Positions 14,463 to 62,904 of a stretch of 64,000 nt of DNA are shown one piece after another (position 1 is the stretch's first letter; each line of letters begins with the position of its first letter). A program made the translations under genes and the position numbers. The DNA is taken from positions 3,732 to 67,731 of the forward strand of contig JAIBAE010000012.1 in assembly GCA_019695345.1 (NCBI GenBank). Reading direction: 5' to 3'. The notes beneath the pieces are model-generated. The model worked only from the letters and a program-made list of their open reading frames with translations. It was not told the DNA's origin and did no database searches. The DNA is from Bacteroidota bacterium (GTDB lineage: Bacteria > Bacteroidota > Ignavibacteria > Kapaibacteriales > NICIL-2).

Positions 14463-14514
14463 GGTTGCGCGCCGAAGCAAGCCGTACAGCGCGCAAACCC
14501 GGTGCGAGCCGTGC
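14463..14514 (+). repeat. GC-rich intergenic element, forward copy (pair 1, left)
   Basis: GGTTGCGCGCCGAAGCAAGCCGTACAGCGCGCAAACCCGGTGCGAGCC. Same family as 38590, 50238 and 61333. Confidence 0.65.
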
Positions 14515-14528
14515 ATTTCTGCGGCGCA

Positions 14529-14591
14529 GGAACGGATTGTTCCCGCCCGTGTGACGGCGCAGTATGCGTTGCTGCGGCAGGTGTGGGTTCC
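14529..14591 (-). repeat. GC-rich intergenic element, reverse copy (pair 1, right)
   Basis: The reverse complement GGAACCCACACCTGCCGCAGCAACGCATACTGCGCCGTCACACGGGCGGGAAC aligns with the copy at 38590. It is separated from the left copy by ~15 nt. Confidence 0.65.
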
Positions 14592-14630
14592 ATATATAAT
14601 TTACTAATCGTACATTTACGATAGACACTC

Positions 14631-16670
14631 ATGAAGATTCTATTATATATAAGTTGTTTTGTTACATTCTTTAATGTTCTTGTTGCGCAAAACGGTGATT
14701 CGGCTGCGTGTTACCCCGAGGTGCGTTGGAAGGCAGGCGCAGAGGCAGGATATGTACGTGCCATGCACAATGTAGCGTTTTCGGCTTTGCCCGGTATGTT
14801 TAGTTGTAACCCCGGGTTTGAGGGTGGTAATGGTTCGGGTTTGCGTGCCGGTGGTTTTTACTCGATGATATTGGATTCGTATTGCAAACACCGTTGGTTG
14901 TTTACGCTTGGTGTGGATATTCAGCGTGTAAGTTCTGCATTCACCCGCACAGAAAACATTGTGATTGACAACGATGGACTTGCCGTTGCAACCGATGAAC
15001 ACCGCTTGAACACTACGTTGTTGCAAGTTGGTATTACACCCTCGGTGCAATGGTACCCTATTGATAATGTGTTTGTACGTGTTGGGATGAACGTTGCGCG
15101 CACATTGCAGAGTTCGTACACAACCAGCGAGGCATTGATTACGCCAAGTAACGTATTGTTTGAGAATAACCTACGCACGCGGAATGTTTCGGAAGGAAAT
15201 ATAGCATCGCTCTCGGCATTGTTTGCATCGGCACAGGTTACACTTGGGTACGAGTTCCCTCTCTCGGTGGATGGTGCCTATAGTATCACACCTTTGGTGA
15301 TGTATTCGTATGGCATAAATAATAACGTTGCTACTCCCGACCCATGGAAAACAAATGTTGTATCGGTTGGTTTGCAGTGGTCGTTTGCATCGTTGTATTA
15401 CCCGCCACCACCTCCACCACCGCCACTACCGGAGTTGAAGAATGTTCCTGTTGCGCCGGTTGTTGTCGTTACAAAACCAATTGAATTGAAAGCACCAAAG
15501 CGTGCATTAAACGTGGGTGTTACATCGAAAACGATTGACACGAGGGGCAACGAAGTACAAGCGGATAAGTTAGAGATTTATGAGATTGTGCAGGTTACTA
15601 CGCATCCGTTGTTGAACTATGTATTTTTTGATAGTACACAAAGTATGTTGCACCAACGCTATGTTGCACTGGATTCATCGCAAACACTATTGTTTGACTT
15701 TAAGCAGTTTAATAATGTTGGTACGATGGAAACATACAGCCAGATATTAAACATTATTGGTAAACGGTTGCGCGATACACCAAAAGCGAACATTACATTA
15801 ACAGGATGTAATGCGGATATTTATTCGGAGTTGAATGCTATGGAGTTATCCAAAGCACGGGCACAACGTATTGCAGAGTACTTACAGAATGTGTGGGGTA
15901 TTGCAAAAGAGCGAATTATAGTGCAAGCACGAGACTTGCCGGAGAAACCATCGCGTAATACCGTGCTTGATGGTGCCGATGAAGACCGACGTGTTGAGTT
16001 TAGTTCCAATATTGCGGACATAGTTAAACCAATTATTACCTACGATACAATTTATACAACAGCCAATGGTGTGCAGAGTATTGTAATACACCCCGATGTG
16101 AAATCGGAGGCGGGAGTGCTATCGTGGAGAGTGACGGTGAAACAGAAAGGCACTATAAAGAAAATCTATCAGGGCTCAGGCGAAATGCCAAGCAGCTTTG
16201 TGTATTTGTTAGACGAAGACAGTAAATTAGTGCCAAGAGTATCAGCTCCACTTGATATTGAAGTAGTGGTAACGGATAATGATGGAACTACAAGTATGGC
16301 TCGGAGTCAATCAATTCAGGTACAGATAACGAAAAGAACCGATCTTCAGCGCGAATTGTATAACTTAATATTGTTTGACTTTGGTCAGTCGAGTATTACC
16401 GGTATAAACCGCGCGACCGTTGATTTTATCAAGACACGTATTCAAGATAAGAACTCCGTAATGATAGAAGGATTAACCGACCGGGTAGGAGAAACCGACA
16501 TTAATAAACAGCTTGCGTTACGAAGAGCACAGTCTGTAGCAACGATATTAGGAATACCCGACCAAAACATAAAGGGAACAGGTGCGAGTGAGTTGTATAG
16601 CAATGATTTGCCTGAAGGCAGATTTTACTGCCGTACGGTAAAGATATTAATTGAACAAAAAGTAAAATAA
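14631..16670 (+). CDS. OmpA-family protein with N-terminal beta-barrel-like region, poly-Pro linker and two OmpA-like domains
   Basis: Signal peptide MKILLYISCFVTFFNVLVAQ and a PPPPPPPPLPE linker. OmpA-like segments LTGCNAD...LSKARAQRIAEYL...DRRVEF and IEGLTDRVGE...NKQLALRRAQSVATIL...GRFYCRTVKILI. Confidence 0.8.
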   Translation: MKILLYISCFVTFFNVLVAQNGDSAACYPEVRWKAGAEAGYVRAMHNVAFSALPGMFSCNPGFEGGNGSGLRAGGFYSMILDSYCKHRWLFTLGVDIQRVSSAFTRTENIVIDNDGLAVATDEHRLNTTLLQVGITPSVQWYPIDNVFVRVGMNVARTLQSSYTTSEALITPSNVLFENNLRTRNVSEGNIASLSALFASAQVTLGYEFPLSVDGAYSITPLVMYSYGINNNVATPDPWKTNVVSVGLQWSFASLYYPPPPPPPPLPELKNVPVAPVVVVTKPIELKAPKRALNVGVTSKTIDTRGNEVQADKLEIYEIVQVTTHPLLNYVFFDSTQSMLHQRYVALDSSQTLLFDFKQFNNVGTMETYSQILNIIGKRLRDTPKANITLTGCNADIYSELNAMELSKARAQRIAEYLQNVWGIAKERIIVQARDLPEKPSRNTVLDGADEDRRVEFSSNIADIVKPIITYDTIYTTANGVQSIVIHPDVKSEAGVLSWRVTVKQKGTIKKIYQGSGEMPSSFVYLLDEDSKLVPRVSAPLDIEVVVTDNDGTTSMARSQSIQVQITKRTDLQRELYNLILFDFGQSSITGINRATVDFIKTRIQDKNSVMIEGLTDRVGETDINKQLALRRAQSVATILGIPDQNIKGTGASELYSNDLPEGRFYCRTVKILIEQKVK

Positions 16671-16722
16671 GCAAACAAAAAACCACGTAGTAATAAACTG
16701 ATACTGAATACCGGAGAGTACA

Positions 16723-17568: not shown

Positions 17569-17581
17569 CTTGTTCGTAAAA

Positions 17582-19117: not shown

Positions 19118-19128
19118 GTATTGTTTCC

Positions 19129-19292
19129 CTGCTCCGAACAACACACATCAACCAAACAATGCGCTGCACAGAGAGAACCGCATCTGTAGTACTCACGGTT
19201 ATCGTGGATTGGTGTAATAAGTCCGAAGGCTCTGTCCGGCAAAGCAAGGTTCTATGCGGCGCGCAGGTACGGTGCCGTCCGGCGATAGCAAA
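19129..19292 (+). repeat. Conserved intergenic element, copy B (~164 nt)
   Basis: Direct-orientation match to 1730-1915. It lies between the second LuxR gene and the DUF2569-like gene. Confidence 0.6.
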
Positions 19293-19355
19293 GTAAGTAG
19301 TAAGAAAACAAAACTTCTTACGATATTTGTTATCATATATTAAAGCAGGTATTAT

Positions 19356-19853: not shown

Positions 19854-19858
19854 TTGAT

Positions 19859-20407: not shown

Positions 20408-20417
20408 CGAGAATTTC

Positions 20418-22085: not shown

Positions 22086-22700
22086 ATGGAATCTGAAAAC
22101 TTTTCCGGAACTACGCTTCCCAAACATACAGCACAGTTAATATTTAAGTATGCGCGGTTACGTGTTGCAACGTGGGAAAAACAGCTCACTGTTGAACTTG
22201 ATAAAAAGCATAGTGCTAACGCAGTACAGTACCTTCGTGCTGCAATCGAAAAATACTCTTTGGATAAGGACAAACTACCTACCGATTACGAAGTCACATC
22301 GTATCTGTTTGACGGTTCTAATTTTATGGTAATTGATGAGAACAATGTTCTTGAATTTGGCTTTGAATATATACCCGGCGATTTTCAAAAAGCAGTAGAA
22401 CTTGCCCACCAAAACATAGACAAAATACTGGCTACTCTACAACAAGAAATTAATAAACATCCCGAGCAGGCTCACAACCTGAAAACTGATAAGTACATTA
22501 ACAAACGCTCAACGCCAACTGCTACAGAATCAACAAAAAAACAAACTACTCTGCTACGAATCGAAGAAGTGATAAGCGAGTATTCCATATCCCGCACCAC
22601 ACTCTATCAATGGCGCAAGAGCGGTGCATTACCGTATAAACGAATTGGAAGAATGGTATATGTACACAGAGATGATATTGAAAAACTATTAAGTACATAA
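22086..22700 (+). CDS. Excisionase/MerR-type HTH (HTH_17-like) DNA-binding protein with unknown N-terminal domain
   Basis: C-terminal LLRIEEVISEYSISRTTLYQWRKSGALPYKRIGRMVYVHRDDIEKLL. Positioned next to attL. Confidence 0.65.
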   Translation: MESENFSGTTLPKHTAQLIFKYARLRVATWEKQLTVELDKKHSANAVQYLRAAIEKYSLDKDKLPTDYEVTSYLFDGSNFMVIDENNVLEFGFEYIPGDFQKAVELAHQNIDKILATLQQEINKHPEQAHNLKTDKYINKRSTPTATESTKKQTTLLRIEEVISEYSISRTTLYQWRKSGALPYKRIGRMVYVHRDDIEKLLST

Positions 22701-22992
22701 GTTGCTATCGCAAACCGCTCCAAACCGGTAGTGCAAGTAAAAAAAACATCTGTCTGCGGGAAAAATCCTTTGCGCTGCAAACAACCTTTATCGTGATATG
22801 TTGTGTATAACATGCAGGTGTTGTATGTTTGGAGCAGTATTAATTTCCTTGCACAGACCCGCCCCATTTCACACGGACTCCGTAAGGAAATCTAAATAAA
22901 AGATTAGCAGTCACTTAACAGAAGTACTTCCATTTGTTTATTCAGTTTAAGTGGTTATATCAATTGATTACATTCGACTTCATCTCAACAAT

Positions 22993-31477: not shown

Positions 31478-32038
31478 AGGTGTGCTGTAGTATTTCCGTA
31501 GAACTGTAGTAATTTCACTTGGCTTCTCTCCGGCATAGAGCTGTTGTAGTTTGCTATACCGCTTGGTGCCGTCCCGCGTAAGCAAAAAACTATTTATCAG
31601 ATAGATAATGTACTGCAAAGCGGGTGTTTGTGCGATAGTTTTCGTCATTTTGTATTTTTTTTGCGTTTTATTGCCTTTTATTGCCTTTTTTTCGCAACTA
31701 AAACGAGTTCAAATGTTGACTTTTATTGTGAAAACGTGGCTTTTTAGGAAGATTACGGTAGTGTTTGAACCGCAAAAATGTATATACAAGATGATACATT
31801 GAGATAAACATAATAGACAGCGGTATAAGTAATAAAAATTTGAAGAAATTTTTAGGATATCATCCTATACTAATCGTTTTGTATCATAAAGTGTAATAGT
31901 AGGTGAACATTATTATGTGCTATCGCAAGACGGCACCGAATAACAAGCAAATCAAACCATTACCTTGCCGGAGAGTACACCATTTGACATTAATTTTTGA
32001 CACATTTAAGATACTTCCCTACGATGTAAAACCCAATT

Positions 32039-36154: not shown

Positions 36155-36489
36155 GCCTTGAAAGGTTCGTATGAAATATATCGTATGCTTGTGTTTACTG
36201 ATGTGCCAATGCTGTATACTCATAACAAGTTCGAATGCTTATGCTACACGTGTTTATTAAAACCGCATGTTAATGAAGTATATCAGTATAGTATAGGTTG
36301 ACAATGGTGCATTCTTAGGGTTTGACAATACAGGAAGTTAAGTATTATTTACAAAGTAACATACGGTACATTGTAAATAGAATATGTTTCTTTAATACTG
36401 TTCTTTCCGGCTAGGAGGCGTTAGTTGGTTGTATAAGGTTCGGTGCCATCGGGCGATAGCAAAATACGTAATAACAAATTCATTTTTTT

Positions 36490-38589: not shown

Positions 38590-38661
38590 GGTTCCCTCCT
38601 CTGCCGAAGCAAACCTCGTACGCCGGCACACGGGCGGGACACAACGGTACAGCAACGCAGG
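38590..38661 (+). repeat. GC-rich intergenic element, forward copy (pair 2, left)
   Basis: GGTTCCCTCCTCTGCCGAAGCAAACCTCGTACGCCGGCACACGGGCGGGACACAACGG... Confidence 0.65.
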
Positions 38662-38732: not shown

Positions 38733-39053
38733 ATGAAAATGTACATTGTTGTAAAAAATGAGATCCCGGATGAACTTATCCCCGTAATTGCAGCTCATGC
38801 TTCATTGGCGTGTTATCTACAATTTAAAGATGATGAGAGGATGATAAGATGGATAAATGGTGTTTTTAGAAAAGTAGTATGTTCAGCAAGTAATGATGTT
38901 TTTGAAAAGCTCAAAAATGAGGGTGATTTTATATGCCTAACTGAATCTGTACTAGATAATATTGAAGTGTCCTTAGCATTTTGTCCAAGAGATGAGTACC
39001 CCAAGATATTCAAGTACCTAAGTAAGTGGAAGCCTAGTGGTCAAAAAAAGTGA
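38733..39053 (+). CDS. PTH2-superfamily-like small protein (peptidyl-tRNA hydrolase 2 fold candidate)
   Basis: KMYIVVKNEIPDELIPVIAAHASLACYLQF...W.NGVFRKVVCSASNDVFEKLKNEG.FICLTES...VSLAFCP aligns by eye with the Pth2 pattern KxVxVVRxDLxMxxGKxxAQxxHAA...W...GxxKVVL...L..L...DAG.T...VLAIGP. Confidence 0.45.
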   Translation: MKMYIVVKNEIPDELIPVIAAHASLACYLQFKDDERMIRWINGVFRKVVCSASNDVFEKLKNEGDFICLTESVLDNIEVSLAFCPRDEYPKIFKYLSKWKPSGQKK

Positions 39054-39217
39054 TTGATAAGATTGTAACATAGTGTATCGTGAAACCTGTTGCGCTTTAT
39101 CTCTTTTGTATCTATGGCGGTGCACGTAGTTATTGATAGGCAGAATACAAGTATAACATATACGATAGACAAGGTGCATTATGTGGTAAAAGAATATCAA
39201 CAGGGCGACACAGTTAA

Positions 39218-39276
39218 GGTTGGCTCCGCCTGTGTGTCGGCGCACTACGGGTCGCTTCGGCAGACGGGCGGAGACC
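39218..39276 (-). repeat. GC-rich intergenic element, reverse copy (pair 2, right)
   Basis: The reverse complement GGTCTCCGCCCGTCTGCCGAAGCGACCCGTAGTGCGCCGACACACAGGCGGAGCC aligns with 38590-38640. Confidence 0.65.
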
Positions 39277-39286
39277 AAAAAAGAAT

Positions 39287-39316
39287 TTAAAATAGAGTAA
39301 CAATAGAGTAACGGAT
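39287..39316 (+). promoter_or_regulatory. Tandem 11-nt direct repeat TTAAAATAGAGTAACAATAGAGTAACGGATG, site 1
   Basis: ATAGAGTAACA/ATAGAGTAACG with an 11-nt period. 28/30 identical to 39996-40025. It lies 105 nt upstream of ATG 39422. Confidence 0.45.
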
Positions 39317-39421
39317 GTGGTGAAAATCACTTTATTTTTACTATGTACTTGTTCGGATAATGTACAATCTGCTTTGAATCAATAATCAATAGATACGTAC
39401 ACGTTAACACGAAGAGATATT

Positions 39422-42637: not shown

Positions 42638-42789
42638 CGTATACCCTTGGTTGTGGTCTTGCGATTGTCCCTAACTGCTATCGCAAGACCGCACCGATTG
42701 TATATGTATAATAGTTTCTTACTGTGTGGGAGAGAAAGTTGATATTGTTGAAATTTATATATCAATAACCATTACATTTTGAGGGACGT

Positions 42790-44529
42790 ATGAAACCATA
42801 TAAGCTCGCACTTCTGATTGTTTGCTTGCATATACTTAGTATGGGGGCGTGTTGCCAATGCCCTACAACACTATTATCCGAATCGAGTACCAAAAACAAG
42901 AAGGAAATAGAGGAACTGTTACGAACAATACATTACTATTCGGGCTATGGTGATGTTCCTTTGCCTACATTTTGTTTCAGACCAGAACCAGATAAATATT
43001 CAGATAGGAATGGTAAAGAAGTACCTGGCGCATACTACGATGGCGATAGATCTATTGTGATTTATGAAAAATTATACAACGAAGTAAAACAAAAATTTGG
43101 TACAACTGCTAGAGATGCTTTTGCCTATGTTATAGCTCACGAGTTAGCACACTACTTCCATAATCACAACACAAGCAAGTGGATAAACGGCAAACTGACC
43201 CTAAAACTATCATTTGGTTTTGCAACTGCACATTTGACTGATATGCAAGGAGTGGCAGTCAATGATACAAACAACAGCAGGTTGATTGTTGCTGAACACG
43301 ATGCTGATGCAACTGCCGCAATGTGGTGTTACCGTGCGGGGTTTAACCTTAAAAAAGTAAGTAACGAGATGGAATACATTTACAGTACGTATAATTTGCC
43401 AGACAATGATTTGGTTAAATATGGATACCTTCCGTTACGTATTCGGAAAAAAGGATTTAGCGAGGATATTCTGAAAATGGCTCAACAAGCTGCGCATTTG
43501 TTATCGTTTATTGAGTACGCAGTTGCTGTGCAAGATTGGAGTACAGCACAAATGCTATTCAAGTATCTTGATAAATATGAACAAGCATGGTTGCGTACCC
43601 CCGAAATAGAAAATATGTGGGGTGTAATGTTGGCACAGTGGGCATTAACAGAGATGAGTAAAAATGGATTTGCATCGCATCTTCATTATGCATATTGCTT
43701 CCCGTTTACAATGCAACAACCATCTTTATCTACCAGTAAAGGTTCTGCGGAAGAAATCACAGCATTGTTAGACTCAGCTGAGCATCATTGTTCTACGGCT
43801 ATAAAAAATTCAGATTCAACTTACACTGCCGCTTATATCAATATGGGGTTAATTGCCGTATTGCAGAATAACCTACAAAAGGCAAAGCGTTGGTTACAGG
43901 ATGTACACCTTGCTTCCATACCCGATGAACAACTTGCCGCACTGCATATTGCCCGTGGCATTTACGCATTACAGGTTAACAAAACCGATATTGAAACTGC
44001 ATTGAATTTGTTCAAGCAAGCAAAATTTACGTTACCTGTTGTTGCTGAAAACAACGTCAGGTTATTAACTACTACATCAATTCCACACACTGCTCTTTCT
44101 AACAAAAAAGTACCAACGCAAACATTTCTCAACTGGGATAAACCGGATACCATAAAAATTTTCCTTGATACTAACATCCATACTGTAAGGAATAAGATGG
44201 ATACATTGCTCATACGTTCATATCTGCTTTCCGGCAACAAAGATGTTCGATGTACCTATTGCACAATACATAGTCCTAAACCAAAAGTATTTGAAACAAT
44301 GAAATATAAACCGAGTATGGTTGAAGGGCTACAACCTAATAGTAATGGCGATTATGAGTATGCCGAATTTCGAAAAAAGTTTGGTGATAGCGATATGGCA
44401 ACAATTACTAACGGAAGAACAATGATTGCTTATACATTGCCAAATAACGAACACCATAATACACTAATAGTTGTTGTGAATAATGATAATCAATGTATCG
44501 AAGAAGTTTGCCAATGGCGCAACTGGTAA
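42790..44529 (+). CDS. Lipoprotein with M48-like HExxH zinc-metallopeptidase motif and TPR-like region (BepA-like architecture)
   Basis: Lipobox-like LSMGAC. VIAHELAHYFHNH, then AEHDADATAAMWCYRAGF (downstream E/D ligand region). TPR-like AAYINMGLIAVLQNNLQKAKRWLQ. Confidence 0.65.
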   Translation: MKPYKLALLIVCLHILSMGACCQCPTTLLSESSTKNKKEIEELLRTIHYYSGYGDVPLPTFCFRPEPDKYSDRNGKEVPGAYYDGDRSIVIYEKLYNEVKQKFGTTARDAFAYVIAHELAHYFHNHNTSKWINGKLTLKLSFGFATAHLTDMQGVAVNDTNNSRLIVAEHDADATAAMWCYRAGFNLKKVSNEMEYIYSTYNLPDNDLVKYGYLPLRIRKKGFSEDILKMAQQAAHLLSFIEYAVAVQDWSTAQMLFKYLDKYEQAWLRTPEIENMWGVMLAQWALTEMSKNGFASHLHYAYCFPFTMQQPSLSTSKGSAEEITALLDSAEHHCSTAIKNSDSTYTAAYINMGLIAVLQNNLQKAKRWLQDVHLASIPDEQLAALHIARGIYALQVNKTDIETALNLFKQAKFTLPVVAENNVRLLTTTSIPHTALSNKKVPTQTFLNWDKPDTIKIFLDTNIHTVRNKMDTLLIRSYLLSGNKDVRCTYCTIHSPKPKVFETMKYKPSMVEGLQPNSNGDYEYAEFRKKFGDSDMATITNGRTMIAYTLPNNEHHNTLIVVVNNDNQCIEEVCQWRNW

Positions 44530-44573
44530 ATAAGTAAGTACAAAAAGATTGATATACATTTGGTTACAATGAT

Positions 44574-47500
44574 ATGAAAACTCAACTTCACATACTGTTT
44601 ATTTGTTGTGTTATATTCACACTATGTAATACTTATACAAGTAAAGCGCAACCTGATCAACCACAAACTCCACCATCCACCCCAAAAGGTGAGAAGTATG
44701 CGATAGTGATGGCTACAAATAGATATATTGCTTTTCGTACTTTAAACTATGCAGAAGAAGATGCCAGATTAATAAAAAAAATAATAGAAGACGACAGCAT
44801 AATAGGAATAGGTGAGACGAAAAGCGATACTTACAATAAACACTGTTACTTTTATTTGGACACGAATGTTACACCAAGCAATTTTTCGACAGCGTTAAAA
44901 CAAATTGGGAACCAAATTGCGCAAAATCCAAATAAACTAAATCACCCACCCGACACTTTATTTTTTTACTTTTCAGGTCATGGTTTTTTCGATGAAGAAA
45001 ACGATTTGTATTACTTGTGTGGTTACAACGCAGAAAAAACTGGAACAACGGCAGTTTGGGAATTAAAAACTCTTTGGGGCAGGTTAAATAAATTTGCAAA
45101 AAGTTGTAATACTGTAGTGAATGTAGTGATTGATGCATGCCATTCAGGTGGCGTACATAAAGCATCTATTAATGGCGAAGATAAGAAACCACAATGTACT
45201 TTTATTATTTCCACAAAAGACACTTCATCGTCTTTCGAAGATAAATGTTGGGGAGGTGGACACGGTGTTTTCACATACTATCTTGCCCGAGGAATTGTAG
45301 GAGAGGCAGACGAAGATAAAAACGGAGTAATTCAATTATCAGAATTAAAAAAATACTTAAACAACTCATTCAAATCAGATAAATGTTTAAATCAAATTGG
45401 TAATGGTAAGATTCAAAAGCCAAGTATCCTTACAAATAATACAGAAGATGGTGATGAACTAGTAATAAGTAAAAGCCCCGTAAAGAGTTTGGTAAAAGAT
45501 TTTGTTCTGAATCTTGGGAAAGAAAATAATCCTTCAATTGTTGTTATCAATAAAGGCGATAACGATGATAAAAATTTGAAAAAATCTGTTGATTCTGTTC
45601 TTACGTTACTAGAATCAGATAATAAAATATTGTCTGCCTCACAGGTGAGGTATGATTATGTTTTAGAACACGCAAGTAGTGAATATCAAAAGCTCAGTGC
45701 AAGAAATTTTTTACAAAACCAATACCAACGCTATGCTGAAAATTCAATCAATGCCTTCTTCCACGGTGATATAACCCGAGATTACGGTACTGAATTTAAA
45801 CAAGGTAGTGCATACCTTGACTCTGCTATGAAACTTCTTCCCGAAACAACAGAAGATTTAATTGACCTTCGTGATTTTATGTATGGCTATGCAATTGTAT
45901 ATAACTCTGATAGCAGGTTATACTATAAATCAGATTCACTATTTAAAGAGTGTGTAAAGCGTAAACCGCAGTTCACCTACCCATATTACGGTTTAGCCGT
46001 GTTAAATGAGGAACGTTGCCTATATGATACCGCAGAGAAGTTATTTAGAAAATGTATAGCATTATCACCCGAGTGGATGAGACCGTATAATAGCTTGGCA
46101 CAAATGTATAGAGACAGGCACTACTTTAAGCAAGGCCTTGCATTGGCAGACACGGCAATAAAAAGAGACTCTGTAAACCCGAACCCATACATAACCAAAG
46201 CAAACTGTTTATTGGATCTGGGGCATTACAAGCAAGCAGAAGAAGCATACAACAAAGCCCTACAACTCAATAACAACCGTAATAACAATATAACGGCGCG
46301 AATTAAGCGCAATCTGGGAATTTGTTATCGTGAACGTGAAGCAAACACAACATACCGCAAATACCTCAAAGAATCATTTGAGGCAGATTCAACTTACATT
46401 TTTACATTACAGAATTTAGCTGAGTTAAGCAGTCAGGATACAAGTGTTTATCATGGCATTCATACATGGAATACGTACTACAAAAAGATATTGAGTTTAC
46501 CGGAAACTGCTGAAAAGTATTATGTGCTTGGGAGTTTTAATCAATGGTGTGCAGGTAAAATTCCGAATGATAAAGGAGATAGCATAAAACGTTATATGCT
46601 CCTTGACACCGCTAAACGCTATCTGGTGCAAAGTATTGACCTTGACACCTTTAATGTTGATGCATATAAAAAACTATTTTGGACTTATTGGGATTACTCA
46701 TATTACGCATACTATCTAAACGATAAAAGGTTTATCAATAAGAATGATGCAGACGCATTTCAGGTGATTTCAAAAATTGATACCCTTTCAAAAAACCATG
46801 TATCTGAGATACAATATGCAATTGGTTACTACTACTTTTGGAAGAAAGCTGACACTACAAAAGCAATTGAATACTACAAGAAAGCACTACAACTTGAGCC
46901 AGGATACTATTCACCAATAAGAAAACTTGAAGAAATTTATAGCAAGTATGACTCAGCAATACTACAAATGTATTATATGGCAGATAGTACTAATTGTTCA
47001 CCAGTTACAAGCCATGAACTTGCTATGTATTATGAAAGAATTGGTAAACAAGATTCAGCCATGCGAAACTATAAAAATTGTATTGTCTTAGACTCATCAT
47101 ACTTTAAGGTATATCCAAATTTAGCCATACTATCTATGGCAAATGATGTAGAAAAAACCTTAGAATACTGCAAAACGTACATGAAACATAAATCTGATGT
47201 GTTTACACCGTCCAATAATCAAAGGGAATCATTAAATGTTGCAAAAAATGAAATTGAGAATAACAGAAATGTAGAAAGATCTTTATCTGATTTATTATTG
47301 GCAGAATCAGTGAGGTCATGGCGTTTAAAACGATTTGGAGAATGTTTGAGATATGCAGAGGTTTCGTTCGAATTAAATCAAAATAACACAAATGCGATAT
47401 TGCAACTGGCAAAATTATATTACATGATGAATGATAGGCATAAATTGTATGAAATAATCACTTCAATAAAAATAAATAATGAGAATATTTTTGATGCGGA

Positions 47501-47930
47501 TCAGAAGATTATGTATAGTAAACTACAATTACTCGTTGCTATTCAAAATAACGACACTTTAAAAGTAAGGAAGTGTTTAAACTATCTAAATTCAAAGGAT
47601 GGTGATGATAGATTTGATGAAATACCTTGGTTACAACACATAAAAAGATTGTTAGATATAGCTTCATTAACAACTGGAAATACAAAACAACAATTCAAAC
47701 ACATTGCAAATAATGGAATAGTACTCAGTAGCGAAATGAATGTTGATATGAAAACAGGACAATCACTTTCTCAAAATAACTTTTTTTCGATTGTTAAGAT
47801 AAAATCAAAAAATATTCAAGCCATAAAAGGTGAATTTGAACAATCCTTACTTGAAGATGGCTTCCTGTTGAATAATAACACGCGAAGAATACTCTTTGAG
47901 AATGACGAGCAATATCATTTAAACGAATAA
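44574..47930 (+). CDS. Exported caspase-family (peptidase C14) protease fused to a long TPR array
   Basis: Signal peptide. KYAIVMATNRY; His site LFFYFSGHGF; Cys site VVIDACHSGG; EF-hand-like loop DEDKNGVIQLSEL after the catalytic domain; ~700 aa of TPR-like repeats. Confidence 0.85.
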   Translation: MKTQLHILFICCVIFTLCNTYTSKAQPDQPQTPPSTPKGEKYAIVMATNRYIAFRTLNYAEEDARLIKKIIEDDSIIGIGETKSDTYNKHCYFYLDTNVTPSNFSTALKQIGNQIAQNPNKLNHPPDTLFFYFSGHGFFDEENDLYYLCGYNAEKTGTTAVWELKTLWGRLNKFAKSCNTVVNVVIDACHSGGVHKASINGEDKKPQCTFIISTKDTSSSFEDKCWGGGHGVFTYYLARGIVGEADEDKNGVIQLSELKKYLNNSFKSDKCLNQIGNGKIQKPSILTNNTEDGDELVISKSPVKSLVKDFVLNLGKENNPSIVVINKGDNDDKNLKKSVDSVLTLLESDNKILSASQVRYDYVLEHASSEYQKLSARNFLQNQYQRYAENSINAFFHGDITRDYGTEFKQGSAYLDSAMKLLPETTEDLIDLRDFMYGYAIVYNSDSRLYYKSDSLFKECVKRKPQFTYPYYGLAVLNEERCLYDTAEKLFRKCIALSPEWMRPYNSLAQMYRDRHYFKQGLALADTAIKRDSVNPNPYITKANCLLDLGHYKQAEEAYNKALQLNNNRNNNITARIKRNLGICYREREANTTYRKYLKESFEADSTYIFTLQNLAELSSQDTSVYHGIHTWNTYYKKILSLPETAEKYYVLGSFNQWCAGKIPNDKGDSIKRYMLLDTAKRYLVQSIDLDTFNVDAYKKLFWTYWDYSYYAYYLNDKRFINKNDADAFQVISKIDTLSKNHVSEIQYAIGYYYFWKKADTTKAIEYYKKALQLEPGYYSPIRKLEEIYSKYDSAILQMYYMADSTNCSPVTSHELAMYYERIGKQDSAMRNYKNCIVLDSSYFKVYPNLAILSMANDVEKTLEYCKTYMKHKSDVFTPSNNQRESLNVAKNEIENNRNVERSLSDLLLAESVRSWRLKRFGECLRYAEVSFELNQNNTNAILQLAKLYYMMNDRHKLYEIITSIKINNENIFDADQKIMYSKLQLLVAIQNNDTLKVRKCLNYLNSKDGDDRFDEIPWLQHIKRLLDIASLTTGNTKQQFKHIANNGIVLSSEMNVDMKTGQSLSQNNFFSIVKIKSKNIQAIKGEFEQSLLEDGFLLNNNTRRILFENDEQYHLNE

Positions 47931-47957
47931 GTTATTTTTAAAAAAAGGTTAAAAACT

Positions 47958-49652
47958 ATGATAAAAATACTCCAGTACATCTCCACTTTTATACTGTGCG
48001 TGGCGATATTACATTCCAATGTAAATGTTAAAAACGGCAACTTTTTTATAGGATATGTTGACGTATATTTTAACGATAACTTTAAAATTGAGCGTGTGTA
48101 TAATTCTAAAACTGATTTTAAAGGAATGTTTGGTAGGGGTTGGGGATGCGAATACGAAATGTATCTGACTACACTTCCCGATGGTACTATTATGCTGCAC
48201 GAATACGGAGGTGGAGCAGAAAATATCTTCAAACCACGTGGTTACTCGCCTATTTCAGTTACAAATGCAGTCAACAACATAGTTGAACTTGAAATACAAT
48301 ATGGTATCACGCAACCCGAACAACGACTTAATAGAATGAGTAGCTTACAGGATAATTCAAACAGGCGAACCGATGCGTGGAAAGCACTACTCAAAAAGGG
48401 TGTTAAATGGTTCGAAATAGCAACGGGTACAGTATTAACATCGTATGATTTTTCAGCCCAAAAAATTTTAGTAACAGATACATCCTATAACAGAATAAAT
48501 GGAGACATTACTGAAGTGTTTAATAAAAAAGGTCAGTTTGTAAAGCGTATTGTAAAGGATGGCTCCTATATCGTATTAGAGTACGATGCAAATGGTCGTA
48601 TATCCCGTATGAGCAATGATAAAATGAATACCTTAAAATTTCATTATAACAGTATCGGACTGGTATCAAAGATTATTAGTAATAGTACTACTAAATCGGG
48701 AGCATTCAAACAATCCTCATATACGTATGATACTTTACAGTACGAGTTGATTGAATCAAATGATGCTGGTAATAATATATTCAAATACTCATATTCAAAA
48801 GATGGGTATCATAATCTTGTTCAAATTTTGTATCAAGATAATACCACAATGCAAATAGGATATTGGGGTGCCGAAAAGTTTGTAAATGTAAAATCAGCCA
48901 AAGAACGTGATGGAAGATACTACGAATATGATTATATACTACGTAAGAAAGTTGATGAAATCAACCAAAACTATACCGTAACAGTAAGTGTTTATTTGGA
49001 TACTACAAAAACAAATGAAATTTCCAATAGTACATATCTATATATTTACAGAACTTCAAGCTCAGGCAGAGAATGGACTTACTCCCTGAAATCAATTATT
49101 GATGGTGATACTACCGAAACCCGTTACCACGAGAAAACAGGGCTACCTGTGTTTATTGCGAAGCATGGCGATACAACAAAATTCGATTATACACCCAAGG
49201 GGGATGTAACATATAAAGAAACCTCTTATTCAATAAAGTGGATTGATTATTCTTCGTGTAATAAAGTAAGCCGAGTTAAGGAAACAGAAAAGTATAGCAG
49301 AAAACCCGATACAACATGGAGTACATTTGAATACGATTCACTCTGCAACCTAACTATGGCAAAAAATTCAGATGGAAAATTACTGTCATTAAAATATGAT
49401 AACAAGGGGCACATTACTACCCTGTTAGATGAGGAAAACAATCAAACAATTACATTCGAATACAACCAAATCAATAAACCGATATCAATCACTGTTATTG
49501 GTGTTGGTACTATAAAAGTAATCTATAATACCGACAACGAAATTGAAAAGGTTGATAGCGATGGTGGGCGTACTGTTGCAACAAAAGTTACAAGGATATT
49601 TCAAAACCTGCTGGATGTTATACGTCCTGCAGGTGTGTCATTAAATTTTTAG
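47958..49652 (+). CDS. Short RHS/YD-repeat protein without a recognisable C-terminal toxin tip
   Basis: The N-terminus NVNVKNGNFFIGYVDVYF...RVYNSK...GMFGRGWGCEYE is like Rhs N-terminal modules. YD repeats include YDANGRISRMSND, YDNKGHITTLLDEENNQTITFEYN and YTPKGDVTYKE. Confidence 0.7.
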   Translation: MIKILQYISTFILCVAILHSNVNVKNGNFFIGYVDVYFNDNFKIERVYNSKTDFKGMFGRGWGCEYEMYLTTLPDGTIMLHEYGGGAENIFKPRGYSPISVTNAVNNIVELEIQYGITQPEQRLNRMSSLQDNSNRRTDAWKALLKKGVKWFEIATGTVLTSYDFSAQKILVTDTSYNRINGDITEVFNKKGQFVKRIVKDGSYIVLEYDANGRISRMSNDKMNTLKFHYNSIGLVSKIISNSTTKSGAFKQSSYTYDTLQYELIESNDAGNNIFKYSYSKDGYHNLVQILYQDNTTMQIGYWGAEKFVNVKSAKERDGRYYEYDYILRKKVDEINQNYTVTVSVYLDTTKTNEISNSTYLYIYRTSSSGREWTYSLKSIIDGDTTETRYHEKTGLPVFIAKHGDTTKFDYTPKGDVTYKETSYSIKWIDYSSCNKVSRVKETEKYSRKPDTTWSTFEYDSLCNLTMAKNSDGKLLSLKYDNKGHITTLLDEENNQTITFEYNQINKPISITVIGVGTIKVIYNTDNEIEKVDSDGGRTVATKVTRIFQNLLDVIRPAGVSLNF

Positions 49653-49701
49653 TATAAGTTCAATCAACTAACATCCTTCTCACAACATAATAGGAATTCT
49701 G

Positions 49702-50302: not shown

Positions 50303-50482
50303 TATCTTTGATAAGAATTGAATTAGAATTACCAATTACCAATTACCTTATCTGTGAGTACCAATCAAAATTTTGCTTTCATACAAACACATATTCAGGC
50401 ACTTGATTTCTTGCTGTCGATACTCATTGAAACACCACAATCTGATGAATGTCTAAAAGAATGTACGTTAATAAAGATGTAA

Positions 50483-55443: not shown

Positions 55444-56658
55444 CTACTCCCACACCCTGCGCATGTCTTGTTCAGTTACCTTGTCAGTAAGTTTGATGTA
55501 TTTTTTGAATGTCTTATAATCTTTGTGCCCGGTAATGCGCATAATGGTATCTACTCTCATTCCCTTTTCTAAAGATAGCGTAACAAAGGTTCGGCGTGCT
55601 GTGTGAGTAGAGATAAACTTATACTTTGGTTCTTTGCTTGTTATTCGTTCGTTACCTCTGTACCGTGTGATTTCTTCCGGTGAATCTATACCTGCTTGTT
55701 GTGCGGCTTCTTTGATGTACGTATTCATCTTTTGGCTGCTGATAACTGGAAGTTTTTGCAACCCTGTATATTTATCAAGAATACTCTGTGCATTTTTAGT
55801 GATTGGTATTTTTAAGACATCTTTGGTTTTTGTTGTACGTAAGTGCCAGTTACTATCTTTAATATTATCAGTATGTAACTGGCATATGTCGCTATAACGC
55901 TGTCCTGTAAGACACTGGAAACAGAATATATCTCTCGCTCTGTCAAGTTTGGGATTATCAGAAAAATCGTATTGTAGTAATCGTAGTAACTCGTCTTCAG
56001 TCAGATAGACAATATCAACTTGCTCATCCATCGGTTTGAATTTCTTGTAACCATTGTTACCATGAAAACCATGTTCTTTTGCCCAGTGCATAAATGTTTT
56101 TAATGCAGTAATGTATTTACTCAGCGTATTGTTTGTTACTCCTTTATCTACCAACATATAGGTAGTAAATATCTCATAGAAGTTGTTATCAATGGTATCA
56201 AATGAAAGTTTATATTTCTTTGCAATAGAAAAATTGGTTAGATGTTGAATTACCGTTAGGTGTTTGTTACTACTATTTCGTGCATAGTGTACAGACTTTC
56301 TTTCCACAAACATTTTGTATGCTGATAGAAACTCCGCTTTCTTTTCTGCTACTTTAGGATTCTTAAATGCCATGATAGCACTCTGTATAGTTGCATAGTC
56401 TGCATCCGGATGTTCTCGTAAACAGTTTCGGTAGGTAGAAAGAATACCATTCTTTAAAGCATCTAACCTTCCGTTTAACTCCATCGAGTTCGCAAGCGAC
56501 CGCTTAGCTTTTTGCTTGTCGGAATCCCAATGCTTTTCTGCAATATATTCACCTGTTTTAAACACCATTGTATTGCCTCTAACAATCCCCCTGATGTATA
56601 TATAAAGACCACGCTCCTCACGTTTCGATTTTCTATCTAAATAGATGTTAATAGTCAT
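55444..56658 (-). CDS. Tyrosine site-specific integrase (Bacteroidetes type with N-terminal Arm-DNA-binding domain)
   Basis: N-terminus MTINIYLDRKSKREERGLYIYIRG... Catalytic contexts CLTGQRYSD (Arg), HTARRTF (His-x-x-Arg), GHKDYKTFKKYIK (His...Tyr). Confidence 0.9.
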   Translation of the reverse strand: MTINIYLDRKSKREERGLYIYIRGIVRGNTMVFKTGEYIAEKHWDSDKQKAKRSLANSMELNGRLDALKNGILSTYRNCLREHPDADYATIQSAIMAFKNPKVAEKKAEFLSAYKMFVERKSVHYARNSSNKHLTVIQHLTNFSIAKKYKLSFDTIDNNFYEIFTTYMLVDKGVTNNTLSKYITALKTFMHWAKEHGFHGNNGYKKFKPMDEQVDIVYLTEDELLRLLQYDFSDNPKLDRARDIFCFQCLTGQRYSDICQLHTDNIKDSNWHLRTTKTKDVLKIPITKNAQSILDKYTGLQKLPVISSQKMNTYIKEAAQQAGIDSPEEITRYRGNERITSKEPKYKFISTHTARRTFVTLSLEKGMRVDTIMRITGHKDYKTFKKYIKLTDKVTEQDMRRVWE

Positions 56659-56870: not shown

Positions 56871-56906
56871 AAAAGTCCTGTTGTATAAACAGGACTTTTC
56901 TTTTTG
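56871..56906 (+). terminator. Strong hairpin + T-tract, probably the native tRNA-Leu terminator displaced by the island
   Basis: AAAAGTCCTGT-TGTATAA-ACAGGACTTTT (11-bp stem), then CTTTTTG. Confidence 0.65.
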
Positions 56907-57167
56907 CTGGCGCAGGACGGCTTCCGGTGTTGCTTTTTATCAGTGCCTCATGTTGCCGTAGAGAACACGCCAATCTGCGATAACCGTTGTTCGCAGATGA
57001 AGGTACTTTCCCGCCAAGATTTTTTGAGTTTATGTAGCGTTTTGGTGCGGTCGGGCGATAGCAAAAAATTTTACGTATTGTGTACGATTTAACACCTTTT
57101 AGGCAACGGCGTTTGCGTATGTTTGCGGGACTTTTTTTGATATTCACCACATTAGAATAGGACGGTA

Positions 57168-59099: not shown

Positions 59100-59280
59100 A
59101 AAAAGGACTTCCTAAACAGGAAGCCCTTTCACAAATTATCATTTTTCGGCTTTGCGATGTTGGGGAATTCAAAGTATAGATGTTCAGTTTAGTACAAATG
59201 CTCAATAGAATTCCAATGCTCAAATTTAGCACATCAGCCTCATCAGGCTCAATATCGCAAACCGATGTTACCTGTCGTTT

Positions 59281-59973
59281 TTATTGTTGCACAAAGCCAA
59301 ACTTGTAAGACTTATTTGTCTGCTTTTTTATTAAAGTCAATGTGTCGCCAAATTGAGATTTAATAACCATATCGCCAATTGCAGCTACGTCCGTAAACTG
59401 TTTGCTATCGCTATTTTTATTTGGAATCGATGTAAATGAAAATTCATTGTCAATGTTGTTTAAAACAAAGTATTCAGATGAGTCAACCTTAACAACGTGT
59501 GTTATTTCACCCTTAAAAGTTGCGTCATTAAATATTTTGTATGCCTTTTGTTCGTCTGTATAAACTTTAATGAAAATTCCTTGGTCACCCATTTTATCAA
59601 ACTCAATTAGTGTGTCGCCTTTTAATTTATAGTCAAACCGAAATTTGTCTGTAGAAATCCAAATTGCATTTTTGTCCGAATAGCCCATAATGGCTTTTGA
59701 TTTATAATACCAAAATCGGTCGGATTTGATATTGTCAAAATCTGCTTGTCGGTCTGAAACCTGATAATATAAAACGTTTGAAGTGTCTTTTATTTCAATT
59801 AAGGTAAAGCCGTATTTGTTTTGTCTAAACCAAGTGCCGTGCAAACCTTTGAATATTGTCGTGTCCTGTCCAATTGGTTTATTCTTGCTAATAACTTTAT
59901 TCTTTGTCGGCTGATTGTTACAGCTACAAGCAAGAATTGTCAAACAGAAAAAAGCAATGAAATGTTTTGTCAT
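59281..59973 (-). CDS. Hypothetical lipoprotein
   Basis: MTKHFIAFFCLTILACSC lipobox. No recognisable domain. Confidence 0.6.
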   Translation of the reverse strand: MTKHFIAFFCLTILACSCNNQPTKNKVISKNKPIGQDTTIFKGLHGTWFRQNKYGFTLIEIKDTSNVLYYQVSDRQADFDNIKSDRFWYYKSKAIMGYSDKNAIWISTDKFRFDYKLKGDTLIEFDKMGDQGIFIKVYTDEQKAYKIFNDATFKGEITHVVKVDSSEYFVLNNIDNEFSFTSIPNKNSDSKQFTDVAAIGDMVIKSQFGDTLTLIKKQTNKSYKFGFVQQ

Positions 59974-60036
59974 TTAATATTTGTCAATGTTTATGGTTTG
60001 TCTATAATATGGCAGGTAACTGATTGCTAACAACGA

Positions 60037-61209
60037 TTACATCATTTCAACAATCATTGCACTTGCCTCGCCGCCACCAATACACAATGTTGCCAAACCA
60101 TATTTCTTACCTTGGTTTTTAAGTGCATGTAACAACGTAGTAAGCACACGTGCTCCGCTTGCGCCAATAGGATGCCCCAATGCAACAGCACCACCGTTTA
60201 CATTCATCTTCTCAGCCGGGATACCCAGTGTTCCCTGTGCCGCCAACGCTGTTACCGAGAAAGCTTCGTTTACTTCAAACAAATCAATCTGGTCAATGGT
60301 TAATCCTGCTTTTGCAAGAACCTTATTAATTGCATGGATTGGTGCTGTGTTAAAATCTTTTGGTGCATGGGCAAAGCTTGCCTGTGCAAGAATCTTAGCC
60401 ATTGGTGTAAGCCCAAGCTCTTGCACTTTTGCTTCGCTTGCAAGAACAACAGCCGCTGCGCCATCATCAATAGAACTTGCATTAGCGGCAGTAATAGTTC
60501 CATCTTTTTTAAACACCGGTTTTAGTTCGGGGATTTTATCAAACTTCACTTTACCCGGCTCTTCATCTTTATCAATTACAATGTCGCCTTTTCTGTCTTT
60601 AACAACAACCGGAGCTATCTCGTTAGCAAATGCGCCGTTCTTTTGTGCATCAAGTGCGCGGTTATAACTTTGGATAGTAAAAGTGTCCTGCATATCGCGA
60701 TTAATGCTACACTCGGTTGCGCAGGTTTCTGCAAAGTCGCCCATTGGTGCTTTTGCATACGCATCGGTTAAACCATCGTATTGCATCGAGTCCACAATTT
60801 CGCCGTTACCATATTTATAACCGCCACGAGCTTTGGGTAATAAGTATGGGCCGTTGGTCATCGATTCCTGACCGCCCGCAACAACAATCTCTGCATCGCC
60901 GCAACGGATTGCCTGATCGGCAAGCATAACAGCTTTTAATCCGCTACCACAAACTTTATTAATGGTCATACACGGAACAGAATCGGGCAAACCAGCGCCC
61001 AATGCTGCCTGGCGTGCCGGTGCCTGACCAACACCAGCTGTTAATACATTACCCATAATAACTTCACTTACATCGGCAGGGTTAACACCTGCACGTTCAA
61101 CAGCGGCTTTAATAGCAACCGCGCCAAGTTGTGGTGCACTAAATCCCGATAAACTTCCCATAAATGCGCCAATTGGTGTACGCGCTGCCGAAATAATAAA
61201 CGATGCCAT
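60037..61209 (-). CDS. Acetyl-CoA C-acetyltransferase (thiolase II)
   Basis: I start at MASFIISAARTPIGAFMGS (ATG at 61207-61209). Active-site contexts NKVCGSGLKA, NGGAVALGHPIGASG, CIGGGEA. Confidence 0.92.
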   Translation of the reverse strand: MASFIISAARTPIGAFMGSLSGFSAPQLGAVAIKAAVERAGVNPADVSEVIMGNVLTAGVGQAPARQAALGAGLPDSVPCMTINKVCGSGLKAVMLADQAIRCGDAEIVVAGGQESMTNGPYLLPKARGGYKYGNGEIVDSMQYDGLTDAYAKAPMGDFAETCATECSINRDMQDTFTIQSYNRALDAQKNGAFANEIAPVVVKDRKGDIVIDKDEEPGKVKFDKIPELKPVFKKDGTITAANASSIDDGAAAVVLASEAKVQELGLTPMAKILAQASFAHAPKDFNTAPIHAINKVLAKAGLTIDQIDLFEVNEAFSVTALAAQGTLGIPAEKMNVNGGAVALGHPIGASGARVLTTLLHALKNQGKKYGLATLCIGGGEASAMIVEMM

Positions 61210-61332
61210 GAATCTCTCCGTTAATTGGTGATGAATGTTTATTGTTAAAATCAAGTCTGCAAAAATAACCAAACCCACCGATGTAAATAGTGGCGGGATA
61301 TAAATCGTTTATATCACGCTAATTTTGGGTTT

Positions 61333-61395
61333 CGGCAGTTGCCGCAGCAACCCGCAAGCGCGCCAACCCGGTGCGAGCCCACCGTTAAGCGACGC
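61333..61395 (+). repeat. GC-rich intergenic element, forward copy (pair 4, left)
   Basis: CGGCAGTTGCCGCAGCAACCCGCAAGCGCGCCAACCCGGTGCGAGCCC... Confidence 0.6.
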
Positions 61396-61683
61396 ATTTT
61401 TTACAGATTACCTTGTCAATTCCATGCAGTATATTCAATTGCCATAACTGAAAATGCGATGAGCATATATCGGAATGATAAGCGTAACAGGTTCCTCCAG
61501 AGATTTCCTTGTTACGTGTAATGGATACCCGATTTCTCGGGTATGACAGTTCCTAAATAATTCTTATACAGTTTACAAGATTGTCATTCCCGAAAATGCG
61601 GTGAGCATTTATCGGGAACCCAGTTATCGTAATGATTCCTCCAAACAACCATTGCCGTGTTCTCATTCAGCATATCTGCGTTC

Positions 61684-62766
61684 TTACTTCCACTTCGCAA
61701 TCCACTTTTTTTCGGACTCGGTAAGCTGGTCGGTGTTTGGTTTATAGGTTGGGTTTGGCATGTACCAATCTATGTGTTCGTAGTACTTTTTTAGGTCGGG
61801 GTTTGTAAAAACATACCCGCGCCGCGCAAACGGTAGATTCTTTAGTATTCTGCGTTCCTGTTCGTTTTTAGGTTCGGGAATGTTTTCTTGTTGGTACACA
61901 GAAAACGGAAGGTACTGTATATCTTCGGCAGCAAATAAACGCTGTGCATACAGTTGTAATTCACCTTTTGGTTTAAAGTTCATCTTGCGGAATACAAGCA
62001 TACCTTTTTGAATATGGAACTTGACTTCACCAACCTCATTAGAGCCATTCCATTTTGTATCGTACTTACCTACACCTTGTATTTGCCACTCGGTTGCGTT
62101 GCTAAAAAAGCTCTTGGCAATAGCAAACGTTTGGAACTCATCCATATCAAGATTCAAGGTGAAATCGTTAATCTGTTTGTTGCCCCAACGGTTGGCAGCA
62201 GTAAGAATGTAATCAAAACTATACTCAAGGTCAACACCGGAAGAGACATCGTACGTGTACGTGTGTTCTATAATGTTCGTGCCTTCTTTAAACGTTGCAT
62301 TGAAGTGATACACGTAGTAAAAATTTACCTCGTTTACGTTTTCAATACTTGCTTTTATATCTTTTAGTTTTTTGCTTACCACAATCCCATTCTTTGCATA
62401 CAACGAGTCTTCTACATACGCAATGGTATATGGTTGCTGTTTGCTATTAAGCATAACCGTAAAGTTCCTGATGTACGGATGCTGTCCGTTTTTGGGCGTT
62501 CCGTCTACATCGCCCGTTGGCGAGAATGCTTCAAAGCCAACGGTTAGTTTTTTCTCTTTGCCCGGGTTAAAAAACTCGTAGTACACGGTTACTTCTATGT
62601 ACTTGTTGGCGGTCTTTTTTATGGTAAGTATTTCTTTCTGTACGGTAATATCCGTTTCGGAAATTGGTATAAGCTGGTTACCCTTTGTATAAAACGCACC
62701 ATCGTTTGCCAATGCCGCATAAGCACTACCAAGTAAAAGCAATACAAGAAGTGTGAAGTGTTTCAT
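61684..62766 (-). CDS. YARHG-domain protein with N-terminal exported domain
   Basis: I use the ATG at 62764-62766, giving the signal MKHFTLLVLLLLGSAYAALA. The longer ORF-track start reads through the GC-rich repeat. C-terminal LPFARRGYVFTNPDLKKYYEHIDWYMPNP is the YARHG motif. Confidence 0.75.
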   Translation of the reverse strand: MKHFTLLVLLLLGSAYAALANDGAFYTKGNQLIPISETDITVQKEILTIKKTANKYIEVTVYYEFFNPGKEKKLTVGFEAFSPTGDVDGTPKNGQHPYIRNFTVMLNSKQQPYTIAYVEDSLYAKNGIVVSKKLKDIKASIENVNEVNFYYVYHFNATFKEGTNIIEHTYTYDVSSGVDLEYSFDYILTAANRWGNKQINDFTLNLDMDEFQTFAIAKSFFSNATEWQIQGVGKYDTKWNGSNEVGEVKFHIQKGMLVFRKMNFKPKGELQLYAQRLFAAEDIQYLPFSVYQQENIPEPKNEQERRILKNLPFARRGYVFTNPDLKKYYEHIDWYMPNPTYKPNTDQLTESEKKWIAKWK

Positions 62767-62833
62767 GGAGAATAAAGTAAATGTAGTTTCTGACTTCTGC
62801 TTACGCGGTATAATTATTCTACAACACTCCCAC

Positions 62834-62904
62834 GCGCCGCTGTACCGCTTGGGGCGGACAGAGTTGCCGCGCACACCGGCGCGCTTCGGCAATGGCGGGT
62901 TACC
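62834..62904 (-). repeat. GC-rich intergenic element, reverse copy (pair 4, right)
   Basis: Reverse complement is GGTAACCCGCCATTGCCGAAGCGCGCCGGTGTGCGCGGCAACTCTGTCCGCCCC... Confidence 0.6.

Follow-up and report, generated by a model that had tools for sequence, protein, structure and literature searches.

The 64-kb window analysed here (64,000 nt of contig JAIBAE010000012.1, assembly GCA_019695345.1, positions 3,732 to 67,731) comes from a member of the Kapaibacteriales (Bacteroidota) and holds eight intergenic copies of a GC-rich element, 53–72 nt in length, which we call F1. The copies, or arms, form four pairs (A to D) of inverted, facing arms. Pair A encloses about 5 nt, pair C non-coding DNA, pair B a PTH2-like gene, and pair D a YARHG-domain gene together with small hairpin repeats (Table 1). 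The ~70-bp F1 modules are GC-rich, restricted to one lineage and present in many copies, and we tentatively propose that these arms may be the ends of non-autonomous, transposon-like cassettes. The window encodes a PheS protein identical to the one on a 3.28-Mb contig of a Candidatus Kapaibacterium sp. metagenome-assembled genome (GCA_046329015.1), and DNA of the window is found in activated-sludge and bioreactor metagenomes.

An earlier reading, made from the letters of the window alone (the sequence-only reading), had described eight copies; all of them lie within a few bases of the positions it gave, and the observation is confirmed as real. A MAFFT alignment of the eight has a mean column identity of only 58% (pairwise identities are ~60–75%), and we therefore kept each tested copy out of the training set. 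A hidden Markov model (HMM) was built from three pairs and run over the entire window with every filter disabled. It found the pair left out in each case, with E values between 4e-10 and 5e-4, and no non-F1 position in the 64 kb fell below E 0.1; the window thus contains exactly eight copies. A degenerate F1 pattern gave 6 matches against 0 expected. The arms are 55–72% GC in a window of 39.9% GC, and their described prominence in intergenic DNA is borne out. Across 48 kb they follow the order + - + - + - + -, forward then reverse in all four pairs as had been reported. When arms were placed at random two million times, four close pairs appeared at a frequency of 5e-4, the orientation pattern at 4e-3 and both together at ~3e-6. 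The pairs are spaced 11–24 kb from one another, while the arms of three of the four lie 176–1438 nt apart around unrelated interiors.

From the outside inward, an F1 arm runs from a terminus, (T)GGTT(N)CC, through a box, (T)GCCGAAGCAA, and a covarying 3-bp stem around a 9-nt loop, to an inner box, CGGTACAGCGGCGC, which ends ..GCGNCGC and carries GGTACAGCGGCGC at its inner end. In consensus over many genomic copies, the outer flank is AT-rich until ..TTTTGGTTTCCCGCCTC / TGGTTTCCC and the inner flank is AT-rich again beyond ..GCGNCGC, so the element is sharp-edged. The mini-stem is paired in all eight copies and takes three forms: type I (CGC/GCG), type II (CCG/CGG) and a third variant (CGG/CCG). 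This pairing was matched by none of 500 shuffles, and it falls to 12–67% when the 3′ partner is slid by 1–3 columns.

The mini-stem is the only structure common to the arms. Seven of the eight single arms fold no better than dinucleotide shuffles (z -1.6 to +0.6). Pair A had been described as essentially one long palindrome, but its 166-nt region shows no excess stability over shuffles (z -0.9 as DNA, +0.1 as RNA), because its arms carry different stem forms; in pair C, which has two like arms, the arms pair with each other (fold z -2.5). The missing stability of single arms and of pair A led us to reject a simple hairpin, terminator or repetitive extragenic palindromic (REP) reading. A terminator-pattern scan found nothing accounting for the arms, its sole arm match (38632-38617, minus strand) lying within the single arm B1 where 1.1 chance matches are expected. 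A covariance search against Rfam returned only a tRNA-Leu at the gathering threshold and no arm match at E <= 5. A peptide-coding role was also rejected, since copies differ by single-base indels.

The genes enclosed by pairs B and D resemble those of another group of Bacteroidota. The nearest non-self homologues of the YARHG protein are from Bacteroidia (55–70% identity; Pedobacter, Chryseobacterium, Epilithonimonas and Agriterribacter), as are those of the PTH2-like protein (56–69%; Cyclobacterium, Flavobacterium and Chryseobacterium). By contrast, PheS matches Kapabacteria and Ignavibacteria at 65–82%. Kapabacteria are absent among the taxon-named cargo homologues outside the species' own cluster, most matches carrying no taxon name. 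We considered whether arms travel with these genes between phyla, and rejected this because the homologue loci fetched from other organisms have no arms. From the Bacteroidia-like cargo and the armless homologue loci together, the genes look acquired and the arms belong to the host.

Every strain examined has all four pairs, at 96–100% identity between strains that differ by 0–4%, and pair A is kept in all strains compared over it. The content of pair D does vary, a possibility that the sequence-only reading had raised for cargo in general. In the strain locus L169, 5150 nt stand in place of 63 nt between D2 and the start of the YARHG gene. This insert (1523-6670 of L169; 30–39% GC) encodes a 185-aa GH19 glycoside hydrolase and proteins of 249, 336 and 635 aa, the three larger of which have no family match. 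The homology that L169 shares with the window across D2 breaks off exactly at the inner end of that arm, ...GGTACAGCGGCGC. The stretch of pheS plus D2 is 99.8% identical between the two, the YARHG gene 94%, and both differences within D2 fall in its inner half. With L169 included, the interiors of facing pairs range from 5 nt to 6.6 kb. In metagenome run X6, 131 nt just outside B2 (39283-39413) are swapped for 122 unrelated nt. Strand-switch joints, as an invertible segment would give, were not seen at orthologous loci in assembled contigs, which drop minority forms.

Smaller differences occur inside the pairs as well. The tandem of three AATTACC units in pair C (50327-50351) has lost one 7-nt unit in L002, X6 and X12. 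The YARHG gene of GCA_044230155.1 (L001) carries an in-frame 84-nt deletion (62032-62115) and encodes 332 rather than 360 aa. A small AT-rich hairpin repeat, GAAAATGCGRTGAGCATWTATCGG..., has two copies inside pair D (61447-61520 and 61582-61650), is multi-copy in metagenomes, and has an extra copy near pheS in L003, L157 and L169.

To estimate copy number, we aligned assembled metagenome contigs to single arms and compared their depth with that of unique flanking DNA. In run X6, 66 contigs match D1 at >=80% identity (3 at >=99%, 7 at 95–99% and 21 at 90–95%). Their summed depth is ~1577, against 14 for the unique flank, which corresponds to on the order of 100 D1-like copies per genome. The D1-matching contigs listed for this run have depths of 13–16, like the host's 14. 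Several copies at least 95% identical to D1 suggest recent spread. The interior of D1 is the end point of many short-read contigs, and the core of B1 (38621-38659) recurs on other contigs at >=90%.

Outside the host lineage, F1 was absent from every collection searched. In relatives whose PheS is 74–82% identical, the 55 kb searched around pheS yielded no copy and has no synteny with the window. A PheS search of metagenomes gave 80 loci (best identity 66%), none with arms or synteny, and no F1 copy was found in the 880 kb from these distant Bacteroidota loci. BLAST of the arms against plasmid and phage collections gave no match, and arm-pattern and integrase scans of viral contigs gave chance or distant matches only. 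A genome-collection scan with the loose pattern GCCGMAGCN{9,10}RCRCSSNNACNCNGKSSGVVMM hit at least 56 loci in GC-rich genomes, none of which matches the F1 HMM, and a more stringent pattern for the type-II core had 0 matches in metagenome contigs. With no database or Rfam match, and none found in a targeted literature search, the F1 family is undescribed.

The sequence-only reading had F1 occurring only as convergent pairs. This holds within the window, and contig joints from four metagenomes lend indirect support to pairing elsewhere. At one further locus, seen in three runs, a D1-like arm is followed by a 5-nt spacer and a D2-like arm. Joints of an A1-like with an A2-like arm in facing order occur on at least 5 contigs each in X6 and X12, on 4 in X1 and on 1 in X2, and among the contigs listed with pair A as reference none has the reversed order. 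Contig comparison also revealed reverse-then-forward joints at other loci, which are to be expected between neighbouring pairs.

Transcription could be followed on sparse metatranscriptome contigs. B1 lies 26 nt past a YkuD_2 gene and ~74 nt ahead of the PTH2-like start codon, and one RNA contig runs through it and both of its flanks. PTH2-like transcripts end just ahead of B2. Transcripts of a thioredoxin-like gene start ~120–155 nt outside C2, and thus outside pair C, and no RNA contig covers the arms of A and D. These contigs neither support nor exclude an insulating role for the arms.

Table 1. Coordinates of F1 arms, the segments they enclose, and copies of the second repeat family, F2. 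Positions are those of the window, except for the three copies on locus L154. Leave-out E is the E value of an arm under the HMM built without its pair.
Feature	Position	Strand	Remarks
F1 arm A1	14463-14515	+	type I; without its own inner GCGNCGC box; leave-out E 4e-10
F1 arm A2	14521-14591	-	type II; complete arm; ~5 nt from A1; leave-out E 3e-9
F1 arm B1	38590-38658	+	type II; leave-out E 2e-6
PTH2-like gene	38733-39053	+	106 aa; cargo of pair B; Pfam PTH2 E 9e-5
F1 arm B2	39205-39276	-	type II; leave-out E 7e-7
F1 arm C1	50236-50302	+	type I; degenerate outer end TTAACC; leave-out E 5e-4
Interior of pair C	50303-50478		~176 nt; AT-rich; no open reading frame; AATTACC x3
F1 arm C2	50479-50547	-	type I; leave-out E 3e-5
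F1 arm D1	61327-61395	+	type I; leave-out E 1e-9
YARHG-domain gene	61684-62766	-	360 aa; cargo of pair D; Pfam YARHG E 2e-13
Strain-variable junction in pair D	62771-62833		63 nt; swapped for 5150 nt in L169
F1 arm D2	62834-62904	-	third mini-stem variant, CGG/CCG; leave-out E 4e-6
F2 copy	1847-1919	+	
F2 copy	19224-19296	+	
F2 copy	31519-31591	+	
F2 copy	36394-36468	+	
F2 copy	56997-57069	+	
F2 copy	31911-31983	-	
F2 copy	42670-42742	-	
F2 copy	56900-56972	-	
F2 weak copy	22699-22763	-	
F2 copy on L154	9858-9932		
F2 copy on L154	1281-1351		
F2 copy on L154	1924-1999		

The window also contains a second repeat family, F2. An F2 copy measures ~72 nt and consists of GTTCTCTCCGGCAA, 25–30 variable nt and CGGTGCCGTCCGGCGATAGCAAA, essentially two direct TCCGGCRAWAGCAA boxes. 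By eye, these boxes resemble the outer half of F1, and F2 is found only in loci of the host species. Copies mostly lie 27–245 nt upstream of start codons in sense orientation. RNA contigs of a desaturase gene start at ~57142, 73 nt past an F2 copy, and in L169 an F2-like element lies ~85 nt upstream of the YARHG gene. A conserved block of ~200 nt, CTGCTCCGAACAACACAC...GGTGCCGTCCGGCGATAGCAAA, occurs at 1700-1925 and 19120-19300 and ends in F2 both times. Its position upstream of the open reading frame (ORF) for a 3762-aa protein and of a DUF2569 gene could mark it as a shared leader or promoter region. The 3762-aa protein is a single ORF (2042-13330) that overlaps the next one (13242-14324), whose product has a type IX secretion system C-terminal sorting domain.

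Other parts of the window vary between strains. A genomic island extends from tRNA-Leu(GAG) to a tyrosine integrase (21923-56658; integrase 55444-56658, with Arm-DNA-bind_5 and Phage_int_SAM_5 domains) and includes HTH_17, type I restriction-modification (hsdM, hsdS and hsdR), RhuM/Fic and extracytoplasmic function sigma factor genes; in L001, the content beyond the island integrase differs. A variable module at 42638-49660 holds M48 peptidase, caspase-TPR and DUF6531 genes in the window, and caspase (Peptidase_C14), TPR and CHAT genes in GCA_046329015.1 (L147). To judge from a CHAT gene at a contig end, L002-type strains appear to share the L147-type content. Between the genes for a PrsW-like protease and a thiolase, a 230-aa gene without assigned function (59137-60019) forms a clean 883-nt indel and is missing in L002, L004-L007, L009, L010 and L154; the stretch 59143-59239 beside it is repeated at high depth in metagenomes.

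Taken together, the sharp ends, copy number, lineage restriction, near-identical copies, facing pairs, foreign-looking cargo and change of cargo at an arm edge are best fitted by cassette ends. This would bring F1 close to the miniature inverted-repeat transposable element (MITE)-like or cassette-mobilising terminal repeats that the sequence-only reading had listed as one option. Two modules, inverted and facing, would delimit one segment that is almost empty (A), non-coding (C), or holds one to five genes (B, D, and D in L169). Such a unit would be MITE-like if empty and resemble a mobile insertion cassette (MIC) if loaded. The conserved blocks, (T)GGTT..CC, GCCGAAGCAA, the stem and GGTACAGCGGCGC, would be the binding and cleavage sites of an enzyme encoded elsewhere in the genome, and through its action on the arms a pair may move as one unit.

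A number of results weigh against cassette ends. Like the sequence-only reading, we see no target-site duplication, with none of 2–9 nt consistent over the four pairs at offsets of up to +/-4. A comparison of the window ORFs with Pfam revealed no transposase or recombinase inside any pair and no transposase near one, the sole integrase or recombinase of the window being that of the island. No strain among those examined lacks a whole pair, and arm divergence between strains is about that of the adjoining intergenic DNA. The stem forms are mixed within pairs A and D, though not B and C, and a single element would not usually have ends that mix so freely. Nor are the arms of a pair mutual closest relatives; they are ~60–77% alike. 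Some contigs join arm pieces differently, for instance to F2 blocks, and most genomic copies continue into AT-rich DNA after the inner end and may or may not have partners. The missing duplication, transposase and unit-less strain, together with the mixing of stem forms, are why we hold the cassette reading only as a tentative preference.

Mixed arm types and F2 joints would be explained by a host mosaic resembling bacterial interspersed mosaic elements (BIMEs), which we regard as a credible but rather unlikely origin. F1 and F2 would then be modular extragenic units, spread singly or clustered in alternating orientation, whose role, structural or regulatory, might be to bind proteins or to organise domains. 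Foreign DNA would insert in or near the repeats, or enter by homologous recombination through the portable homology they offer. E. coli BIMEs are built of Y and Z units, and the three stem variants of F1 combine just as freely in inverted pairs; at other loci, F1 pieces and F2 blocks are joined in several arrangements, and the genome has several other small repeat families. The lack of target-site duplications and of whole-unit polymorphism also suits a mosaic. Known BIMEs, however, are tight clusters that enclose no genes, and a mosaic does not account for genes enclosed on both sides: at the observed density, two small foreign-looking genes each lying between facing arms would be unlikely. 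The REP component of this option, as named in the sequence-only reading, fails on the folding of single arms and on the tag expected of REP units, and its suggestion that the structures insulate single genes finds no supporting evidence.

Strict alternation of + and - arms, four times over across the window, could instead reflect sites of a site-specific recombinase, the bounded segments being swapped between replicons or strains. We consider this distinctly improbable. It would explain the absent target-site duplications and the exchange of cargo with a breakpoint at an arm, where identity drops from 99.8% to 94%; both D2 differences of L169 fall in the inner half of the arm, and the 3 bp on either side of 9 nt are a potential part of a core site. 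Yet no 11-6-11 Xer-like core is recognised by eye, and the breakpoint lies at the arm edge rather than within a core. Arms of 53–72 nt that are ~60–75% alike make shared crossover spacers doubtful, no recombinase is linked to the pairs, and the setting is chromosomal, not plasmid. A related and equally speculative idea is that the arms are chromosomal 'cargo bays', lineage-specific inverted ~70-bp sites that capture single foreign genes or swap them between strains. The mechanism would leave no duplication, whether by site-specific recombination or by exchange through arm homology, and would make F1 an Xer-independent chromosomal analogue of dif modules or integron cassettes within an as yet uncultured lineage of Bacteroidota.

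Less probable still are regulatory or insulating protein-binding sites without mobility, in which a promoter or gene lying between facing arms would be looped out or insulated by them. Two arms, B1 and D2, stand in sense orientation ~70 nt ahead of the gene in their pair, and the look-alike F2 mostly precedes start codons, one copy standing upstream of the transcript 5′ end at ~57142. The remaining six arms face no gene start, however, and the RNA contig reads straight through B1. Moreover, ~100 diverged copies in a single lineage, without excess conservation between strains, are more what one would expect of a decaying repeat than of a regulon. Chance similarity among GC-rich intergenic patches, which the modest pairwise identity might suggest since simple shuffles sometimes reach 70% under permissive alignment, is ruled out by the recovery of held-out pairs (E <= 5e-4) as the sole significant matches of the 64 kb, by the pattern matches, and by dozens of further copies in independent metagenomes.

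Gene capture or exchange by F1 would be the main point of interest. How single foreign genes enter chromosomes without evident mobile machinery is poorly understood beyond integrons and the dif modules of Acinetobacter. A host-specific repeat that brackets two Bacteroidia-like genes, with gene gain or loss at an arm edge, offers a test locus for such capture or exchange. F1 also breaks short-read assemblies of an abundant wastewater lineage and should be modelled when these are binned or annotated. If it is an ordinary decaying MITE family, its value is mainly descriptive.

Among known systems, the closest parallels are MITEs and MICs, which in ISfinder usage are transposase-less derivatives of insertion sequences (IS) (PMC3129680); one MIC carries qnrS2 (PMC5444012). 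F1 shares with them inverted terminal modules (four facing pairs of one HMM family), sharp ends, many copies per genome, and interiors that, in the window pairs and L169, hold no transposase and range from empty to unrelated passenger genes, which vary while the ends are kept. It differs in the absent target-site duplication, in very long arms (53–72 bp), and in arms of a unit that are only as alike as any two and of mixed subtypes. No cognate IS is known for it, and neither an empty site nor a relocated copy was seen.

REP, BIME and REPIN elements are associated with RAYT (TnpA-REP) transposases (PMC3733652, PMC6006769), and one end of a REP unit bears a conserved tag, GTAG or CGTC (PMC3733652). 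Like these, F1 is extragenic, high-copy and lineage-specific, and forms inverted doublets in which mixed unit types alternate. Its arms, however, are not 20–40-bp palindromes and do not fold significantly; GTAG or CGTC occurs in some of the eight arms inspected, but at no fixed position. F1 pairs can lie 0.2–6.6 kb apart and enclose genes, three of those in the window being 176–1438 nt apart, and a Pfam scan of the window ORFs found no RAYT gene.

In Acinetobacter plasmids, dif modules lie between pdif sites of inverse orientation, which must alternate (PMC13141974). F1 likewise has alternating inverse sites (P 0.004 for the orientation pattern) and content shuffled among relatives, and no duplication would be expected. 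By eye, and without comparison to the host's own dif, it has no recognisable 28-bp Xer site (XerC-6 bp-XerD), and it is longer, more diverged and chromosomal, and occurs in separate pairs rather than contiguous arrays. Integrons offer a further likeness, in that single promoter-poor foreign genes are delimited by imperfectly palindromic GC-rich sites, and the tight pair A is about the size of an attC site (roughly 130 bp). Integron attC sites are complete palindromes that follow each cassette in one orientation, whereas F1 places one half-element on each side of the gene in inverted orientation. Neither an IntI-type integrase nor attI was identified in the window, whose integrase is of the Arm-DNA-bind_5/Phage_int_SAM_5/Phage_integrase type. 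Arm length, absent duplications and mixed arm types set F1 apart from textbook MITEs and REPs, yet in kind it belongs with the known interspersed inverted-repeat elements.

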